Shown here in pieces: positions 2,185 through 10,354 of a stretch of DNA of 10,436 nucleotides. Position 1 is the stretch's first letter. Each line of letters opens with the position of its first letter. Both the position numbers and the translations under genes were made by a program. Source of the stretch: a virus. The notes beneath the pieces are model-generated. The model saw only the letters and a program-made list of their open reading frames with translations, did no database searches and had not been told where the DNA came from. The stretch lies in the UHGV virus genome UHGV-0239688; one strand, 5' to 3'.

Positions 2185-2385
2185 ATGGTACAAAAATTAA
2201 TGGCACTTGTTAATGCCATCAAAGGTAATAAAAAGCGTATAGCTTTTACTATTTCTGCTATGGTAGGAATTTTACTCTGGAACTTTATTTTATCACCTGT
2301 TGCAATTGCGCATGGTATTAATATTCCAGTAGTTACTCTTGATACATTCGTAGATTTAGCATTCGCTTTAGTTGGGTTAATTTAA
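2185..2385 (+). CDS. Hypothetical small hydrophobic (probable membrane) protein, 66 aa, on the opposite strand
   Basis: ORF-track ORF with a strong SD AAGGAGG (2173..2180) 4 nt before the ATG; product is dominated by hydrophobic residues (two likely TM segments); convergent with gene 61, stops overlapping by a few nt. No minus-strand ORF of any length fills this gap. Confidence 0.35.
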   Translation: MVQKLMALVNAIKGNKKRIAFTISAMVGILLWNFILSPVAIAHGINIPVVTLDTFVDLAFALVGLI

Positions 2386-3410
2386 ATCTTAGCATATTTA
2401 GATAACCGCATTTTAGCCATCAACCCCTGGGCAATATTATTTTTCATATATTCCATAATTTGTTCAGTGGTTGCACCTTCCTTTCTAATCATATCATTAA
2501 CATCTTTTGATTTCCAGGGAGATTTATCCCAAAACATAACCCTTTCTCCTGCATCAACTAATTTAGTCATTCGCTTAATAGTGTCAGGATGACGAGGTTC
2601 ATTATCTAAAACCCACACGCGTCTATCTTTAAATGGAACAATTTCTAGGTCTAATTGACCACCCGTAATAGCTATACCATTTTCAATAAAAAGTGAATCT
2701 ATAGGTCCTTCTAGAACATATACATCACCATCTTTAACTCGTTCGACTCCATAGATTTTTGTTGCCTCAGGATAAGCTTTGATGGTGATATATTTTTGAG
2801 GAGCATCTTTCTTTAATGCACGTCCTTGAAAAGACTCAGCTTTTCCATTAGCATTATAAATTGGAATAACAAGACGAGGCTCAGAAATTTCCTTTTTGTA
2901 TGTTCCCGGTGCTATACTATTAACTAATTTAGGCCATTCAGTTGTAAACCAAAGATATTTCCATTTATCCTTTGGAATACAACGAGCTTTTACGTATTTT
3001 ATAATTGGATGGTCTTCCGCCAGTTTATCTAATCTAACACATGACGGAAGAGATTTAATTATTTTCTTCTCAGGTTGTTTAGGAAGTTCTTTAGGTTTTT
3101 CTACTGGACGACTTTTACCTTTTTCTTTTCTTATTTCAAAGATATACTCACGATATAAATCAGGTTCAAACTCCTTTAAATATATTCCGATTGGTGCATG
3201 ATAGTTACAGTTATAACAATGAATATTTCCTTCATTATTATCACCATAATACCATCCACGAGCTTTATTCTGGTCGGTTTTTGAATCTCCACAAACAGGG
3301 CATCTAAACCGTAATTTAAAAGTTGAACTATTATTTACTTGTGTGAATTTAGGTAAATGAGCTAATGCACGGTATGCAAACTCATTATCAATCCAAGGTA
3401 TTGATGACAT
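2382..3410 (-). CDS. 61: DNA primase (T4 gp61-type), 342 aa
   Basis: N-terminal zinc ribbon (CPVCGDS...CYNC), TOPRIM-like motifs (VYVLEGPIDSLF, WVLDNEPRHPD); length equals T4 gp61; synteny next to gene 41. Confidence 0.9.
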   Translation of the reverse strand: MSSIPWIDNEFAYRALAHLPKFTQVNNSSTFKLRFRCPVCGDSKTDQNKARGWYYGDNNEGNIHCYNCNYHAPIGIYLKEFEPDLYREYIFEIRKEKGKSRPVEKPKELPKQPEKKIIKSLPSCVRLDKLAEDHPIIKYVKARCIPKDKWKYLWFTTEWPKLVNSIAPGTYKKEISEPRLVIPIYNANGKAESFQGRALKKDAPQKYITIKAYPEATKIYGVERVKDGDVYVLEGPIDSLFIENGIAITGGQLDLEIVPFKDRRVWVLDNEPRHPDTIKRMTKLVDAGERVMFWDKSPWKSKDVNDMIRKEGATTEQIMEYMKNNIAQGLMAKMRLSKYAKI

Positions 3411-3412
3411 TT

Positions 3413-3577
3413 TTACTCTTCTTTTTCTTTAGATTCCTCTTTTTTCTTTTTAGGAATCTGTTCAGGACCTTTATTTACTACAGCGCCTGATGTTGTTCCA
3501 GTAGAGATATTTTCAGGACTACCACCTGAATCTCCAGCGACCATATCTTCTTTGATAAATTCTTTATATGTTTTCAT
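3413..3577 (-). CDS. Small hypothetical protein, 54 aa (position of T4 61.1)
   Basis: Below the ORF-track cutoff; hand-translated ATG at 3577..3575 with GAGG RBS; product MKTYKEFIKEDMVAGDSGGSPENISTGTTSGAVVNKGPEQIPKKKKEESKEKEE; stop at 3413..3415 abuts the gene 61 start (3410). Confidence 0.45.
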   Translation of the reverse strand: MKTYKEFIKEDMVAGDSGGSPENISTGTTSGAVVNKGPEQIPKKKKEESKEKEE

Positions 3578-3578
3578 A

Positions 3579-3935
3579 TTAACCTCTATTCATAAAAGCA
3601 TTAAAAATTTGGTCATCAATAGATAGTGCAGTAATATTTTCTGCATCATTTAGCAAATCATTAATTTCATCAGATAGCATAACACATGTACCTTTATTTC
3701 CTGTAATTGTTACTGCACAATTACGAACGTTTTCTTTATTAAATTTTAGGTTAATATTTTCGTAATGAAAATCCTTTAATGCTGAATATATTTTTAAAAT
3801 AAAATTGTCTTTTACTGCAATAAACCCAACCTCACTATTAAAACGTGGTTCATGAAAACTGTAATAAACCTTTTCATCTATAAAATCGTATGAAATTTTT
3901 TCCATTTTTAAATATGAAAATTCAGAACTATGCAT
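3579..3935 (-). CDS. Hypothetical protein, 118 aa (position of T4 61.2)
   Basis: ORF-track ORF; ATG 3935..3933 with GAGG RBS, 12 nt after the sp stop. Confidence 0.6.
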   Translation of the reverse strand: MHSSEFSYLKMEKISYDFIDEKVYYSFHEPRFNSEVGFIAVKDNFILKIYSALKDFHYENINLKFNKENVRNCAVTITGNKGTCVMLSDEINDLLNDAENITALSIDDQIFNAFMNRG

Positions 3936-3947
3936 ACTAACCTCTAA

Positions 3948-4241
3948 TTACTCACCTACCACTTCAGCGATGATATTTTTGTTATTAAAGTTTTTATCGC
4001 AATACAGAACATAATTATACTGCATTACACCACCAGACTTAAGCTGTTTTTGCACTTCAGCTTTCATTTCAGGACGATCGCGCTCAACGATATTCATAAT
4101 ATCTGCTTCAATTTGGGTTTCAACCTCAGTCTGATCCGCAGTCATAGACCATTCGCACAAATCTTTATCATAACCTGCCATAGCAGGCTGAGCAGCACAA
4201 GAAGCTAAAGCAAAAATTGTGGCAAAGATAAATTTTTTCAT
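3948..4241 (-). CDS. sp: Spackle (Sp) periplasmic superinfection-exclusion protein, 97 aa
   Basis: N-terminal signal peptide MKKFIFATIFALASCAAQPAMA; sequence and length match my recollection of T4 Sp (gene 61.3); position between 61 and dmd. Confidence 0.75.
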   Translation of the reverse strand: MKKFIFATIFALASCAAQPAMAGYDKDLCEWSMTADQTEVETQIEADIMNIVERDRPEMKAEVQKQLKSGGVMQYNYVLYCDKNFNNKNIIAEVVGE

Positions 4242-4269
4242 GATAATCTCCTCAGTAGTTTATGTTTAT

Positions 4270-4298
4270 ATAGTATCTCAATTTCCAACAAAAGTAAA
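4270..4298 (-). promoter_or_regulatory. Candidate early promoter upstream of sp (TTTACT, 17 bp, TACTAT)
   Basis: Minus-strand reading tgTTTACTtttgttggaaattgagaTACTATataaac: -35 at 4298..4293, -10 at 4275..4270. Confidence 0.4.
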
Positions 4299-4301
4299 CA
4301 G

Positions 4302-4559
4302 CTATTTTAAAACTTTTGCATAATCACATGTTACAAACTGTTTCTCTAGCTTGACGATTTTACGAAAGTATCTTTTGCATTGGCGAATCTGCCGCTTCGT
4401 AGGGCGAACAGCAAACTTAATAAATTTCACTCGACCAAATGGAGGACTTTCTTCTGCTGGAATATCTAGCACCAATTCCCACGTATCTGCAATAAGTGCT
4501 TTGAATTGCGTATTTTTCCTGACGTTATACGGAGTAGGTTTAAATAAAACAATATGCAT
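4302..4559 (-). CDS. Hypothetical basic protein, 85 aa (position of T4 61.4)
   Basis: Start chosen at ATG 4559..4557 (MHIVLFKPTPYN...) with GAGGA RBS, 1 nt after the dmd stop; the track's longer version (to 4601) would overlap dmd by about 40 nt. Lys/Arg-rich C-terminal half. Confidence 0.5.
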   Translation of the reverse strand: MHIVLFKPTPYNVRKNTQFKALIADTWELVLDIPAEESPPFGRVKFIKFAVRPTKRQIRQCKRYFRKIVKLEKQFVTCDYAKVLK

Positions 4560-4560
4560 A

Positions 4561-4743
4561 TTATCCTCGGCAATCCACTTCACATACTTTCTTGTCATCA
4601 ATGAAAGCTTTAACTAATGCTTTATTAACTTCAGCATATTGAGTAGTAGCCCATTGAACATCATCTTTCATCATTGTGATTTCTTTAGTAAACATGCTTT
4701 CATTCTTAAACCACCCCATAAAAACTACCTTTACCAATTCCAT
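4561..4743 (-). CDS. dmd: Dmd, antitoxin against host RnlA/LsoA toxins, 60 aa
   Basis: 60-aa product MELVKVVFMGWFKNESMFTKEITMMKDDVQWATTQYAEVNKALVKAFIDDKKVCEVDCRG matches my recollection of T4 Dmd (gene 61.5); GAGGAG RBS; own early-type promoter upstream. Confidence 0.8.
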   Translation of the reverse strand: MELVKVVFMGWFKNESMFTKEITMMKDDVQWATTQYAEVNKALVKAFIDDKKVCEVDCRG

Positions 4744-4772
4744 AACAATCTCCTCATTTAACCAACAAGACT

Positions 4773-4801
4773 ACTATACCATAGTCTTGTCAGCTTGTAA
4801 A
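4773..4801 (-). promoter_or_regulatory. Early promoter for dmd (TTTACA, 17 bp, TATAGT)
   Basis: Minus-strand reading gTTTACAagctgacaagactatggTATAGT, immediately after the gene 41 stop; -35 at 4801..4796, -10 at 4778..4773. A 9-bp inverted repeat (4765..4773 / 4782..4790) overlaps the spacer and -10. Confidence 0.5.
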
Positions 4802-6229
4802 CTAAAATTTTAATTCATTTGCCAAAGCATCTAACTGAGCTCGAGTCGATTCGTTTCTTTGATAGCGATTCTGCTCAGCTTGTATCTGTTGTGAACCTGC
4901 TACCTCACTCACTTCAGTTGGAGTAGAATCTTGTTCAATTTCTACCCATTTCTGATTTCCTTTTTGAACACCCATCAAAAACTTATTCCATTTATTCTTA
5001 TCACCATATCGTGATTTGATTTGCTTAATAAGTTGTTGTTCAGCAGCTGCTAACTCCTCGGTTTCAATGACCGCAAGCATAAAATCAGCTGTTGCTGGAA
5101 GACCGGCAGATTCTGCAATATCGCTCATGTTAACATCAGAAGAATCCCAAGCTTGTTTACCAACCTGTGCTGCAGTCCAAAGAACAGTTTCGGTTTCAAC
5201 AGCAAGAGCACGTAATTCCTCTGCAATGGCTTTAACAGTTGTGTAACTATTTTCTGAGTAAACTCTAATGCGGCAAGATTTACAAATACCCAGATAGTCG
5301 ACAATAATGATTGTTGGAACAAAATTCTTCTTGAGCTTTAATTCGTTTAAAAGCGATCGAAATGTATTAGCATCTGCTCCACCAGTAGGATACTGTTTAA
5401 CTATTAAACGACCGAGAGTAGATTTCTCGCGCCATTTTTCCATTTTTCCTTTATACTCAGCGTAAGAAATATGCCCATCATCAATATCATCAAGAGAAAC
5501 ATCAAGCATATTAGCATCAATACGCTTAGCACAGACTTCTTCTGCCATTTCCATGGAAATGTAAAGAACATTATGTCCGAGCTGCAAATAATCTGCTGCC
5601 AATGAACACAATCCTAATGACTTACCAACGTTAACTCCAGCCATTAAAACGTTCAGTGTTCCAGTCTCAGCTCCGCCTTTAGTAATTTTGTTTAGAATTC
5701 TGAGTTTAAATGGAACCTTACGAGCTTTATTCATATAAGATAGCCAACGTGCTTCGTAGTCATCCATCCAATCATGACCAACGTAACTATCAAATGAAAT
5801 TGATAATGCCTGGCGCATGATGTCAGGAATAGCACCAACATCCGGCATTTTCTTATTTCGTTTTTCCGGAGGAAGCTCAGCATTAGTTTGAATTTCGATT
5901 ATTTTAGACGTAGCATTAAACATCGCCCTTTGCTGAACATATTTTTCTGTTTCTTTTACTAACCAGCTGTGGTCTTCCGGAGAATCAGCCAGTTTTGAAA
6001 TAAGTGTTTTTACACCAGAATATTCTGTTTCAGTAAATGAACTATTTTCTAATGCAACATTTAACGCATTAATAGATGGAACGCTATGATACTCATTAAC
6101 ATGAGATTTAATTAATTTGAATGTATTTTTAGCTGGACCACTTTCAAAATATTCTGAATCCATATATGGCCAAACTTTTGAAAAATAAGCTTGATCAAAT
6201 ATGAGATGAGAAAGAATAATTTCTACCAC
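4802..6229 (-). CDS. 41: Replicative DNA helicase (T4 gp41, DnaB-like), 475 aa
   Basis: Walker A GVNVGKS; length and N-terminus MVEIILSHLIF match T4 gp41; the initiation codon is GTG (6229..6227) preceded by AAGGAG at 5-nt spacing. Confidence 0.9.
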   Translation of the reverse strand: MVEIILSHLIFDQAYFSKVWPYMDSEYFESGPAKNTFKLIKSHVNEYHSVPSINALNVALENSSFTETEYSGVKTLISKLADSPEDHSWLVKETEKYVQQRAMFNATSKIIEIQTNAELPPEKRNKKMPDVGAIPDIMRQALSISFDSYVGHDWMDDYEARWLSYMNKARKVPFKLRILNKITKGGAETGTLNVLMAGVNVGKSLGLCSLAADYLQLGHNVLYISMEMAEEVCAKRIDANMLDVSLDDIDDGHISYAEYKGKMEKWREKSTLGRLIVKQYPTGGADANTFRSLLNELKLKKNFVPTIIIVDYLGICKSCRIRVYSENSYTTVKAIAEELRALAVETETVLWTAAQVGKQAWDSSDVNMSDIAESAGLPATADFMLAVIETEELAAAEQQLIKQIKSRYGDKNKWNKFLMGVQKGNQKWVEIEQDSTPTEVSEVAGSQQIQAEQNRYQRNESTRAQLDALANELKF

Positions 6230-7810: not shown

Positions 7811-7836
7811 ATTATAACACAATAAATTTAGGCATT
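7811..7836 (-). promoter_or_regulatory. Candidate promoter upstream of uvsX (extended -10 TGtTATAAT with degenerate MotA box)
   Basis: Minus-strand reading aaTGCCTAAatttattgTGtTATAAT; -10 at 7816..7811, TG at 7819..7818; the MotA-box-like element has two mismatches to TGCTTtA. Confidence 0.35.
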
Positions 7837-8677
7837 AATCAACTGCTATTGGATGAATAGCATTAAACTTATGAAATGCTTCTGATTTTTCTTTACGCGA
7901 AACACACATGCGAAGAACCTTTAATGGTTCGTCTTCTTCACCCAACGATTTTCGTTTTTCAATATTAGAAGTTTTCCAACGAGCTTGCTCTGGAAACTCT
8001 CTATTGATTTGCTCAAGCGCTCTATTATGTTTAGAATTACTACGAATTGAACTACACCCACCAGGAGCGTGTGATTTTCCAGATACAACTAGATATTTGA
8101 ACAAGGCCAAATGCGGATAACCTTGATTAATTAAATTGAGAAATGCATACATATCTTCGCATAAATCAATTTTTCCATACCCAATTTGTTCTGTGGTAAG
8201 TTTTCCGAGGTCATACCATGTATTCGTGAATCCGTATGAGTTTTCACGATAATTACCCCAAGATGAAGTAATTTTAAAAATTGGTAGACGAGCATGACCG
8301 TGATAATACCCGCAATCCATGGCATCTTCAACGTATTGAATCAATTCATAGAACTGTTCACGAGTCAATTGATTGACTTTATCTACACAACGACGATCAT
8401 CTCTTTTTCGCATTGAACTCATACGAATAGTAGTATCATCGTCAATCATCCAGATTCGTTGACCTGCATACATATCAGTAATTGCTTTACGAGTACCGGC
8501 AATTCCGTTTACATCATCAGGAATAGTTATAATTTTAGCTCTAGACCCATAGGCATCATAATAAGCTTTTTCTTCGTGTTCACGCACTACAATATGAGGT
8601 TCATAATCAGTCGGAAACATATCAAGGGCAGAAACTGCCCCGACACGCTGATAACTTGGAATTACGAATTGAATCAT
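7835..8677 (-). CDS. Putative DNA glycosyltransferase (GT-A-like), 280 aa, at the locus occupied by beta-gt in T4
   Basis: Start ATG 8677..8675 overlaps the gene 42 stop (ATGA); the track's GTG at 8683 is less likely. N-terminal FVIPSYQR strand and IWMIDDDTT (DXD) motif are typical of GT-A enzymes; no resemblance to the 351-aa T4 beta-gt as I remember it. Confidence 0.55.
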   Translation of the reverse strand: MIQFVIPSYQRVGAVSALDMFPTDYEPHIVVREHEEKAYYDAYGSRAKIITIPDDVNGIAGTRKAITDMYAGQRIWMIDDDTTIRMSSMRKRDDRRCVDKVNQLTREQFYELIQYVEDAMDCGYYHGHARLPIFKITSSWGNYRENSYGFTNTWYDLGKLTTEQIGYGKIDLCEDMYAFLNLINQGYPHLALFKYLVVSGKSHAPGGCSSIRSNSKHNRALEQINREFPEQARWKTSNIEKRKSLGEEDEPLKVLRMCVSRKEKSEAFHKFNAIHPIAVD

Positions 8678-9414
8678 TTCCACTCACCTTTATAGTCTTT
8701 TTTCACAATATGAGTTTCGCCAGTATTCCACCAATGATCAACCAAGTAAAAATGACGAGAATATACATGAAGACTTCCAACATTCCATATAATAGAACCT
8801 GCTTTATACTGACGAGTTGAATCGCCTGCATTCAAATCAGATACTAATTTATCTAATACGTATTTTTGCCATGCATAATCATTACGGAATCCGAAGACCA
8901 CGTCATTTGAGCGCATGTTAACTACTGCATTGACTTTCTTATCACGAATCAGGTATTGTACTGTATTAGTACACATGAAATCTGACATACCATCTTTATT
9001 GTAGTCAAATTGCATGGATGGACGAGTATAAATCATGATACCACGTCGAGAATCAGGATTTTGACCAAGTTCAGCTAAACACATATCATACTGGGCATAG
9101 TTATCTTCTGACCAAATAGCCCAACCATAATTCGAGTTAATTTCACCTTTAGAAGATGCTACTTGTTGCCAAATCTTCGGTGTTTCACCCGGAATATCTT
9201 TAACGAACAAGCTTTTAGATTTATACCATTCAAGTTCACGCTGAATGTATTCATCATTAAGAGCGCCAAAAATAAACGGTTCATCTGCTACAAATGATGC
9301 GCCAATAATTTCAATAGTTTTAACGCCAGTTTTATCAACTACGAAATCTTTTTCTTTTAATGCAAGCCCCAAATGAAGACGGATTTCTTCAACTGTCATA
9401 GAGTCACTAATCAT
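8674..9414 (-). CDS. 42: dCMP hydroxymethylase (T4 gp42), 246 aa
   Basis: Length 246 aa; thymidylate-synthase-like features including the catalytic-Cys context DFMCTNT and RSNDVVFGF; sequence agrees with remembered T4 gp42; GAGG RBS. Confidence 0.9.
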   Translation of the reverse strand: MISDSMTVEEIRLHLGLALKEKDFVVDKTGVKTIEIIGASFVADEPFIFGALNDEYIQRELEWYKSKSLFVKDIPGETPKIWQQVASSKGEINSNYGWAIWSEDNYAQYDMCLAELGQNPDSRRGIMIYTRPSMQFDYNKDGMSDFMCTNTVQYLIRDKKVNAVVNMRSNDVVFGFRNDYAWQKYVLDKLVSDLNAGDSTRQYKAGSIIWNVGSLHVYSRHFYLVDHWWNTGETHIVKKDYKGEWK

Positions 9415-9567: not shown

Positions 9568-9819
9568 TCATTCCTTCTCTCTGATGATAATTACTTGATT
9601 TGGTTGTGCAGACTTTTTAGTTTCACCCGCAATTGACCAAATAAATGTAATAAACCAACCAATAATTGACCAGTTAAACAGTAAAGATGTGAAAAAGATT
9701 CCTACTGTCGATTTTGACCCACGCATCAAGGCGATAAACCATGGAAGCATGTATATAATAATAGCCAACACACCTGAAACTAAAACCATAAAAATTGAAC
9801 CTGCTACTAAAGTTTCCAT
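9568..9819 (-). CDS. imm: Imm, membrane superinfection-immunity protein, 83 aa
   Basis: 83 aa, the T4 Imm length; two hydrophobic segments; GAGGAAA RBS; position between 43 and 42. Confidence 0.7.
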   Translation of the reverse strand: METLVAGSIFMVLVSGVLAIIIYMLPWFIALMRGSKSTVGIFFTSLLFNWSIIGWFITFIWSIAGETKKSAQPNQVIIIREKE

Positions 9820-9826
9820 GTTTTCC

Positions 9827-10207
9827 TCACTTAGTCAAATTTTTTACACATGAATTATAAGAATTCACTACATACTCCATCGGTGCATTTTTACCTGTAC
9901 GCCATTGGTAATTATTAGCCCAATTTGCCCAAAGTTCAGCGCAGTAGTTTTCAATTTTTTCTTCGCGTGTAATTACATCTGAATTACGATATGCTTGGGC
10001 AGATTCATCTGGACGAATAGCTTCGTCAAAATTCGCCTGCATTTGTTCTACTGTCTGTTTTGGAGCTTCTTTATAACACTTGACATTAGGATTATAAAAC
10101 TTGCTTGAACAGTTTACAATTTTTCCTACATCAGACTGATTTACTACTGGTCCTTGAGCTACACAGCCAGTAAGACCTAATGCAATAATCAAAATAGCGA
10201 TTTTCAT
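9827..10207 (-). CDS. Predicted lipoprotein, 126 aa
   Basis: True start at ATG 10207..10205 (MKIAILIIALGLTGCVAQ...) with GGAG RBS; lipobox LTGC after a short K-containing hydrophobic signal; the track's upstream extension to 10273 reads through the promoter. Cys-containing mature domain. Confidence 0.65.
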   Translation of the reverse strand: MKIAILIIALGLTGCVAQGPVVNQSDVGKIVNCSSKFYNPNVKCYKEAPKQTVEQMQANFDEAIRPDESAQAYRNSDVITREEKIENYCAELWANWANNYQWRTGKNAPMEYVVNSYNSCVKNLTK

Positions 10208-10241
10208 TTCATTCTCCAAATCCGTATCAGTTGATAGTTGT

Positions 10242-10270
10242 ATAGTACCATGGAAGAACAGGGATGTAAA
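10242..10270 (-). promoter_or_regulatory. Early promoter for the lipoprotein-imm unit (TTTACA, 17 bp, TACTAT)
   Basis: Minus-strand reading gtTGTTTACAtccctgttcttccatggTACTATac; -35 at 10270..10265, -10 at 10247..10242; downstream of the gene 43 terminator. Confidence 0.45.
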
Positions 10271-10354
10271 CAACTTTGTGAAAAATTTTTTAATGAATTC
10301 AAAGGGTCCAGAATCATCTGTTTTTCATAAGTATAGATTTATATTACTTGTATG

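Follow-up and report, generated by a model that had tools for sequence, protein, structure and literature searches.

The sequence analyzed here, which we refer to as the window, is the whole 10,436-nucleotide (nt) stretch of the UHGV virus genome UHGV-0239688, with positions counted from its first letter, and the element in question is the group of short genes that lies between the helicase gene 41 and the primase gene 61 (positions 3413 to 4743). An earlier note on this DNA had placed five short genes in this interval and described them as a candidate anti-defense and exclusion cluster, in which dmd and sp had known host-interaction roles and the other three genes were unknown. The coordinates and lengths given for the five genes were exact. 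According to the list of open reading frames (ORFs) and the sequence itself, the interval is filled exactly by five consecutive minus-strand ORFs of 60, 85, 97, 118, and 54 amino acids (aa), and the minus-strand order 41, dmd, 61.4, sp, 61.2, 61.1, 61 gives the same map as that of phages T4 and T2 (Table 1). A megablast search with positions 3000 to 5200 returned 576 phage records, the best with 98.5% identity, in which the corresponding genes were annotated as primase, three hypothetical proteins, spackle, Dmd, and helicase. The whole window was at most 97.5% identical to any record, and it is recognizable as a Tequatrovirus of the T2/T4 type.

Table 1. Features of the interval between the helicase and primase genes, with its two boundaries (window positions)
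Feature	Positions	Strand	Basis
Gene 41, replicative helicase (upstream boundary)	4802-6229	-	474/475 identical to T4 gp41
Early-promoter-like element upstream of dmd: TTTACA-17 nt-TATAGT, TG before the -10	4773-4801	-	Promoter scan, 10/12 matches
dmd (gene 61.5), 60 aa, antitoxin mimic versus RnlA/LsoA RNase toxins	4561-4743	-	Pfam, T4 identity, PDB
tifA (gene 61.4), 85 aa, basic, inhibits the type III toxin ToxN	4302-4559	-	Pfam DUF7279, T4/T2 identity
Second early-promoter-like element, upstream of sp: GTTTACT-17 nt-TACTAT, then ribosome-binding site TGAGGAGATT	4270-4299	-	Sequence reading
sp (gene 61.3), 97 aa, Spackle, secreted periplasmic inhibitor of the tail lysozyme of a superinfecting phage	3948-4241	-	Pfam, T4 identity, PDB
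61.2s, 118-aa T2-type occupant of the adfA slot, half-length AdfA paralogue	3579-3935	-	Pfam AdfA, T2 identity
C-terminal motif of 61.2s, SIDDQIFNAFMNRG	3582-3623	-	Common to AdfA, 61.2s, and the third slot class
Gene 61.1, 54-aa conserved protein, stop-start coupled to upstream 61.2s and downstream primase gene 61	3413-3577	-	
Codons 1-10 of 61.1, MKTYKEFIKE: capsid-targeting-sequence-like leader ending in a gp21-type I-x-E cleavage motif	3548-3577	-	
gp61.1 residues 2-38, homologous to gp23 residues 57-93 (propeptide end, cleavage site, N-arm start)	3464-3574	-	
Gene 61, primase (downstream boundary)	2382-3410	-	338/342 identical to T4 gp61

For T4, it has been written that the region between 41 and 61 "may be an anti-TA island" (TA, toxin-antitoxin; Srikant et al. 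2022, PMC9391042, eLife), and the genes of that island, dmd (61.5), tifA (61.4), sp (61.3), and adfA (61.2) (PMC9391042; Guegler et al. 2023, PMC10853763), have the same position, order, and strand in the window. The promoter regions are conserved as well, and Dmd, TifA, and Sp are 100%, 96%, and 99% identical to their T4 counterparts (60/60, 82/85, and 96/97 residues, respectively). Unlike in T4, however, the 61.2 slot of the window holds a 118-aa, T2-type, half-length paralogue, here called 61.2s, and not the 208-aa AdfA. We consider it highly probable, as one judgement on our best explanation of the interval as a whole, that this is the T2/T4-type anti-TA and superinfection-exclusion island of Tequatrovirus. 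The island itself is already known and published as an anti-TA island. The proposal of an anti-defense and exclusion cluster was right and had been reached independently in the literature (PMC9391042), but two of its three unknowns, TifA and the protein in the adfA slot, were not unknown.

Since every one of the five genes has a Pfam or PHROG family, they can be regarded as real genes and not chance ORFs. Comparison with T4, T2, and two metagenomic relatives, in which the counts were small, gave ratios of nonsynonymous to synonymous substitution (dN/dS) of 0 to 0.15 for dmd, tifA, and sp, of 0.06 to 0.25 for 61.1 wherever dS was above 0, and of 0.25 to 0.34, the highest in the island, for 61.2s; the flanking genes 41 and 61 had ratios of 0.01 to 0.08. 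All five genes are under purifying selection against these close relatives. A lack of coding signature, which the earlier note had raised as something that would tell against the unknown genes, was not what we found, with families for all five and dN/dS well below 1 throughout. No Rfam match was found in the window, and no intrinsic terminator was predicted within the island.

The functions of Dmd, TifA, and Sp were assigned because these proteins are near-identical to experimentally characterized ones, and the naming of dmd and sp as genes with known host-interaction roles holds. Dmd matched Pfam Dmd (PF17587) over its full length (residues 1 to 60, E 1.6e-46) as well as the PDB chain 5hy3_B, "Antitoxin Dmd" (E 1.8e-37), and its complete identity to the characterized T4 protein suggests that it binds and neutralizes the RNase toxins RnlA and LsoA. 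The tifA gene belongs to the same operon, with its ATG 1 nt past the dmd stop. We took this ATG, at position 4559, as the start of an 85-aa protein in preference to the TTG-started 99 aa of the mechanical ORF list, because GAGGA lies 6 nt before it and 85 aa is the length annotated in both T4 and T2. The product is basic, as had been noted (isoelectric point [pI] of 10.2), but it is not an unknown protein; it is the ToxN inhibitor TifA, with 84/85 residues (99%) identical to the tested T2 protein. It matched Pfam DUF7279 (PF23945; E 6.7e-20) and has the central cluster of positively charged residues (RPTKRQIRQCKRYFRK), and no match for TifA was found in the PDB. The type III toxIN system is defeated by TifA, which binds ToxN as well as RNA (PMC9391042, PMC10853763); the homologues of T2, T4, T6, and RB69 have all been tested against ToxN, and those of T4 and T2 inhibit it (PMC9391042). 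Sp matched Pfam T4_Spackle (PF25676) over its full length (E 1.3e-44) and carries an N-terminal signal peptide. It also matched the PDB entries 6x6o and 7cn6, and in 7cn6 the mature chain starts with residue 23, which follows AMA. The protein acts in the periplasm, to which it is exported, as an inhibitor of the gp5 lysozyme of superinfecting phages. In the T2 record LC348380, sp is annotated as 92 aa and the protein ends in ...NNKNNHR, unlike in T4 and the window, which suggests a frameshift near the 3' end in that record.

It had also been claimed that the region has its own early promoters, and this is supported by the sequence and, for dmd-tifA, by published work (PMC9391042). The promoter-like element upstream of dmd is identical in T4, where dmd-tifA is driven by an early promoter (PMC9391042). 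The element upstream of sp, with 8/12 matches, fell below the threshold of 9/12 used in our promoter scan; both T4 and T2 retain it, its alignment with the dmd promoter is in register, and it probably represents a second early promoter. Between dmd and tifA, the scan found no promoter-like site. In T4 omics data, 61.2, sp, 61.4, and dmd have early RNA and early protein. We propose that expression from the island is early and relies on two promoters, one of which would serve dmd-tifA, while the other would serve sp, 61.2s, and 61.1 and continue into the primase gene 61.

Close relatives had been expected to differ in this interval. They do so in the 61.2 slot and by insertions between tifA and sp, but not in tifA, dmd, sp, or 61.1. 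Across 61 loci from IMG/VR, the content between gene 41 and 61.1 ranged from zero to at least 7 ORFs. Tequatroviruses differ in the 61.2 slot, which holds AdfA, 61.2s, or both, and TifA, Dmd, and Sp are nearly invariant among phages of the T2/T4 type. One close relative (L011, 5027 to 5281) has an extra 84-aa ORF (MMLVNREYQFKSEEDLEKF...) between tifA and sp, together with an altered TifA C-terminus. In a group of phages whose helicase is only ~65% identical to that of the window (L012 to L022, ~5594 to 5818), a second TifA-like (DUF7279-type) gene of 73 aa lies directly upstream of 61.1, besides the dmd-adjacent copy. In RB69 (L149, 5012 to 5690), the island also contains imm and imm.1, two superinfection-immunity genes, beside sp; in the window these two genes are found at 9568 to 10273, ~5 kb from the island, as in T4.

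The 61.2 gene of T4 is adfA, which encodes a 208-aa anti-DarT factor (PMC9391042; LeRoux et al. 2022, as cited in PMC9391042 and PMC11257639). The 118-aa protein of the window, which had been listed as an unknown anti-defense candidate, sits between sp and 61.1 in the position of AdfA and passes the Pfam AdfA threshold (PF23813; 33.2 bits, cut-off 27), although with the C-terminal half only. The match covered profile positions 113 to 211 of 211, and BLASTP gave 34% identity to residues 109 to 208 of T4 AdfA (E 1e-9). The full-length architecture of AdfA (~208 to 219 aa with an N-terminal half) was not found; 61.2s has no equivalents of AdfA residues ~10 to 67 and 83 to 113, i.e., it is shorter by ~90 residues, mainly of the N-terminal half, and unlike AdfA it belongs to PHROG 4122, a family of its own. 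Besides the slot and the profile match, the two proteins have in common the invariant C-terminal motif DDQIFNAFMNRG, and the AdfA region that aligns to 61.2s contains the residue that switches DarT1 binding.

The 61.2s protein is identical at 115/118 residues to the T2 ORF, when this is read from its upstream ATG, and in the window the ATG is preceded by its own GAGG ribosome-binding site, 7 nt before. The T2 record (L001, 2080 to 2436) annotates 61.2 as 108 aa from an internal Met; the upstream ATG with GAGG gives the 118-aa form of the database clusters, all five of which have 118 aa and carry PF23813. A tblastn search recovered 61.2s from 339 phage records, of which 295 had at least 80% identity; the 118-aa frame was intact in the 338 that cover at least 80% of the query. 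Full-length AdfA was recovered from 487 phage records. Both genes occur in tandem in RB18, Sf21, and the locus L013, from which we conclude that 61.2s is a paralogue of adfA; a simple truncated allele was ruled out for the same reason.

It could be argued that 61.2s is a decaying remnant of adfA without a function of its own, given that its alignment with AdfA is confined to the C-terminal half, that its dN/dS is the highest in the island, that the T2 record starts the gene at an internal Met, and that the LeRoux lab counts T2 as lacking adfA. We consider this very unlikely, as the frame is intact and the identity is high in the large numbers of records given above, dN/dS is still well below 1, the gene has its own ribosome-binding site, it stands in tandem with full-length adfA, and divergent short forms with 45 to 48% identity are present in another genus (L014, L017). 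The most likely role of 61.2s, which we put forward tentatively on the strength of the AdfA match, would be to neutralize a DarT-type (or other) toxin by direct binding. Several observations speak against this role. Where neutralizing AdfA has the DarT1-neutralizing His (RB69 position 164), 61.2s has Asn72, an assignment that is itself tentative, as the alignment is at ~30% identity. Furthermore, T2 has been treated as naturally without an adfA homologue, T2 and T4 resist DarTG1 through AdfN, and deletion of adfA from T4 gave no phenotype on DarTG1 (PMC11257639). Some other short forms (L013, P0022) have His in the RB69-164 column of the same tentative alignment. An AlphaFold2 model of 61.2s, based on a 6-sequence alignment, had a mean predicted local distance difference test score (pLDDT) of 58.8, too low to use, and the PDB contained no match for AdfA.

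The likeness between AdfA and 61.2s extends to a further group of proteins at the C-terminus. Three otherwise dissimilar classes of slot protein, namely AdfA (208 to 219 aa), 61.2s (117 to 119 aa), and a third class (146 to 190 aa) found in the phages with the ~65%-identical helicase, end in S(I/V)DDQIFNAFM(N/K)R(G/D). This motif was seen in the gene in the 61.2 slot of the window and of L008, L012 to L022, L026, and L149. The peptide is invariant while its codons vary synonymously. The last codons of 61.2s, AGA GGT TAA T ATG, constitute the Shine-Dalgarno sequence for the next gene, and across the slot classes AGA/CGA-GGT-stop-T-ATG (GAGGT-TAA/TGA-T-ATG) provides the ribosome-binding site and start of whichever gene comes next. 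The 61.2 slot would harbor a cassette superfamily (AdfA, 61.2s, and the third class) whose sole common feature is an invariant dodecapeptide at the C-terminus, and the T2-type mini-AdfA may be a toxin inhibitor.

The last gene of the interval, 61.1, encodes the 54-aa protein that had been described as low-complexity and acidic/lysine-rich, and a Lys/Glu-rich tail is indeed present. It had also been counted among the genes where relatives would vary, but the opposite was found. By tblastn, gp61.1 was detected in 1,398 phage records, with Escherichia, Klebsiella, Acinetobacter, Aeromonas, Enterobacter, and others as hosts, and the gene lies directly upstream of the primase gene in 61/61 loci. 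It matched PHROG 1823 (E 2.4e-33) and also the C-terminus of the 156-aa PHROG 2086, and neither gp61.1 nor the long form described below had a Pfam or NCBIfam family. In most lineages outside Tequatrovirus, gp61.1 makes up the last ~45 residues of a protein of usually 154 to 177 aa (extremes 121 to 245 aa; PHROG 2086). The conserved core consists of (L/I/M/V)-x-E followed by MVAGDSGG..NIASGTTSGAV..KGP. From these matches, gp61.1 is best described not as cargo of the island but as the shortened Tequatrovirus version of a protein that is conserved across the T4-like phages.

Structure prediction for a long form (44 sequences; mean pLDDT 62.1) gave a helical N-domain with a pLDDT of 67 to 85, while the tail that is equivalent to the short form was predicted to be disordered (pLDDT <50), and a Foldseek search with this model against the PDB returned nothing at E ≤ 0.001. 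The N-domain had no tblastn match anywhere in T4, indicating that it was lost there and not relocated. In Tequatrovirus, the ancestral N-terminal domain of ~105 aa would have given way to a leader of only 10 residues that resembles those of the internal proteins.

Some records of this gene deserve comment. T6-type variants of gp61.1 (P0002, P0004) have 62 aa and, after PKKKK, read RNLKKKKSKNVINTLD and not EESKEKEE. The cause appears to be a frameshift within the A-rich stretch (window positions 3413 to 3450), by which the acidic tail becomes basic and the ORF crosses the start of gene 61. In RB69 (L149, 3318 to 3784), 61.1 is annotated as 92 aa from an internal Met, with an overlapping ORF032c upstream, while RB69-like contigs (e.g., L026, 2673 to 3167) have one continuous long-form ORF of ~155 to 164 aa; the RB69 record may hold a frameshift or a mis-call.

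Most of gp61.1 resembles a segment of gp23, the major capsid protein. In BLASTP the two proteins were 41% identical over 37 aa (E 7e-8), and a gp61.1-family profile searched against all PDB sequences had T4 gp23 as its sole match (E 2e-4). Long forms from other genera also matched gene 23 in the T4 genome (E 1e-4 to 5e-9). With a slash at the cleavage point, gp23 FLTE/AEIGGDHGYNATNIAAGQTSGAVTQIGP is aligned with gp61.1 FIKE/DMVAGDSGGSPENISTGTTSGAVVNKGP, and the colinear match with gp23 (PDB 6uzc, 7vs5, 5vf3) covers FLTE/AEIGGDHGY..NIAAGQTSGAVTQIGP. Since the protease gp21 removes the N-terminal 65 residues of gp23, cleavage is placed after Glu65, and since Met98 is in the N-arm, the N-arm reaches at least this residue (PMC7136217). 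On the side of the gp61.1 family, Glu109 was invariant in the 44-sequence alignment, and the hydrophobic-x-E tripeptide ends 0 to 1 residues before MVAG across the homologues examined and survives a 2-residue indel in the short forms.

Unlike gp23 and gp24, gp61.1 is without a capsid fold (a body of ~450 to 520 aa); the alignment is confined to the 37 residues, and no Pfam Gp23 match was obtained. The name "major capsid (domain-containing) protein" given to gp61.1 or its long forms in several GenBank and UniRef records is a misannotation that stems from this gp23-like segment. A precedent for a stand-alone N-terminal fragment of a head protein is provided by alt.-1 and alt.-2 of T4, small ORFs that, according to the T4 record, persist from an old duplication that copied the initial part of alt, the gene of a head-packaged protein. 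These, however, adjoin alt and lack conservation across genera, whereas 61.1 is far from gene 23 and widely conserved. We also looked for covariation between gp61.1 and the gp23 N-arm of the same phage, but gp23 residues 58 to 106 were almost invariant in the 8 paired phages, so that the test was without power. A link to the portal through the gp23 N-whisker was dropped, as the whisker belongs to the portal protein gp20 (PMC7136217).

The N-terminus of gp61.1 resembles a different set of head proteins. Its leader is identical at 8/10 residues to MKTYQEFIAE, the leader of the internal proteins IPII and IPIII, and keeps Y4, F7, I8, and E10; in this leader, positions 4 and 7 were mapped to targeting and positions 8 and 10 to processing by Mullaney and Black (PMC9026906). 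When T4 was read in all six frames and the resulting 1,992 stretches that begin with Met and have 30 codons or more were ranked by their match to the leader sequence, IPIII and IPII came first, gp61.1 third, and IPI next. The similarity is also seen in the DNA, where T4 61.1 begins with the same 22 nt as ipI and, of the first 24 nt of the window gene, 22 agree with ipIII. The pattern MK(T/S)(Y/F)K(E/D)(F/V) is kept by every short form, in several genera. The T4 proteins IPI, IPII, and IPIII, with their capsid-targeting sequence (CTS; Mullaney and Black 1996, reviewed in PMC9026906 and PMC3012670), are likewise products of small, early-transcribed genes. In T4 omics data, the true ip genes have early RNA and late protein, and early transcription of 61.1 is therefore compatible with packaging. 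In contrast to the ip genes, 61.1 lies outside the hypervariable ip loci and is conserved, not diverse, and in contrast to the internal proteins, its predicted processed product is acidic and only 44 aa long.

Together, these features could be explained if the conserved unit of the gp61.1 family were a cleavage site and an N-arm-like peptide behind a delivery module, which would be the helical domain of ~105 aa in most lineages and the leader of the internal-protein type in Tequatrovirus. The leader would carry gp61.1 into the prohead core, gp21 would cleave after Glu10, and a disordered, gp23-N-arm-like peptide of 44 residues would be released. That gp61.1 is such a prohead-targeted peptide, processed by the gp21 protease, is the reading we favor, with due caution. 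A number of points weigh against it. The predicted mature 44-mer is acidic, with a pI of 5.0, and the residue predicted to follow the cleaved bond (P1') is Asp, whereas Ala or Ser occupies this position in gp23 and gp24 and behind the IP leaders. A peptide of ~4.6 kDa might leave the head after cleavage. In the literature searched there was no report of gp61.1 as a virion component, and it was not detected in the T4 time-course proteome. Finally, its fixed 41-61.1-61 place in the operon of every lineage fits a role in the primosome or in coupling equally well. The tails of the long forms and of the T6-type gp61.1 are basic.

The operon place leads to another explanation, in which gp61.1 would assist the primosome, or would be no more than an upstream ORF coupled to gene 61 and setting its translation, and the capsid-like features would be evolutionary leftovers that play no part in the head. 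Besides the constant position upstream of the primase gene, this would account for the most compact lineages (L064, L065), where the operon comprises only 41, 61.1, and 61, for the distance of 2 nt between the 61.1 stop and the gene 61 start (TAAAAATG), for the RNA of 61.1, which is early like that of replication genes, along with the undetected protein, and for the strongly basic tail of the long forms (KKRKRIKVNLNKL), which could bind DNA. A pure coupling ORF, however, would not keep ~30 residues of its protein nearly invariant across phages of Escherichia, Klebsiella, Acinetobacter, and Aeromonas, and neither version explains the specific homology to gp23 or the gain of an internal-protein-type leader by the short forms. 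We regard this explanation as possible but doubtful.

The gp23 homology could also be read as mimicry, with gp61.1 acting as an early decoy of the most conserved stretch of gp23. By engaging a host factor or an immune sensor that recognizes gp23, it would blunt the sensor in advance of the appearance of gp23, with capsid-triggered systems (e.g., Lit/Gol, CapRel) as the models. The gp23 residues that are mimicked, 57 to 93, are nearly invariant in the 8 phages compared, 61.1 is transcribed early and gp23 late, the gene is located at the edge of a proven anti-defence island, and capsid-triggered immunity is documented in the case of Gol-Lit (PMC3014915) and, going by its title, in a second paper (PMC9712102). 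We nevertheless find a decoy quite unlikely. Typical counter-defence cargo is not conserved as gp61.1 is, in nearly every T4-like phage and over many hosts; Gol, which lies just C-terminal to gp23 residue 93 (its coordinates were not found in the literature searched), would fall outside the gp61.1-like segment; and the conserved hydrophobic-x-E site would be without a role.

Returning to the prohead-targeted peptide, a wider proposal can be made. The T-even phages would have in gp61.1 a fourth product with a CTS, one that has been overlooked, and its core would be a previously unrecognized, near-universal peptide, head-associated or capsid-mimicking, from the replication operon. Taken jointly with the cassette superfamily of the 61.2 slot and with the mini-AdfA as a toxin inhibitor, this proposal is a speculative one that we would not expect to hold in all its parts. 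Neither the capsid-targeting leader nor the gp23 homology of gp61.1 was mentioned in the literature searched.

Outside the island, the window differs from T4 in lacking dam, segF, segA, and the beta-glucosyltransferase gene. Its gene 56 (1595 to 2206) is ~70% identical to that of T4 and lies 176 bp from gene 61. An ORF at 7835 to 8683 had no T4 match; relatives found with the whole window annotate a beta-glucosyl-HMC-alpha-glucosyltransferase in this place.

For Dmd, TifA, and Sp, the analysis adds nothing new, and the island illustrates that reasoning from genome position picks out counter-defence genes. What remains of value is the recognition of the T2-type 61.2 gene as a conserved mini-AdfA and the unreported description of gp61.1, with its leader and its copy of the gp23 N-arm, as conserved across T4-like phages. 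Phages of the T2 type, reported to be without adfA, carry a conserved half-AdfA, which bears on how toxin inhibitors diversify by loss of modules and exchange of cassettes. T4 is among the best-studied viruses, and its gp61.1, which is conserved in ~1,400 sequenced relatives, combines a capsid-targeting leader with a copy of the cleavage site and N-arm of the coat protein. If gp61.1 is packaged, or is a capsid mimic, it would connect the replication operon with the assembly of the head or with capsid-sensing immunity.

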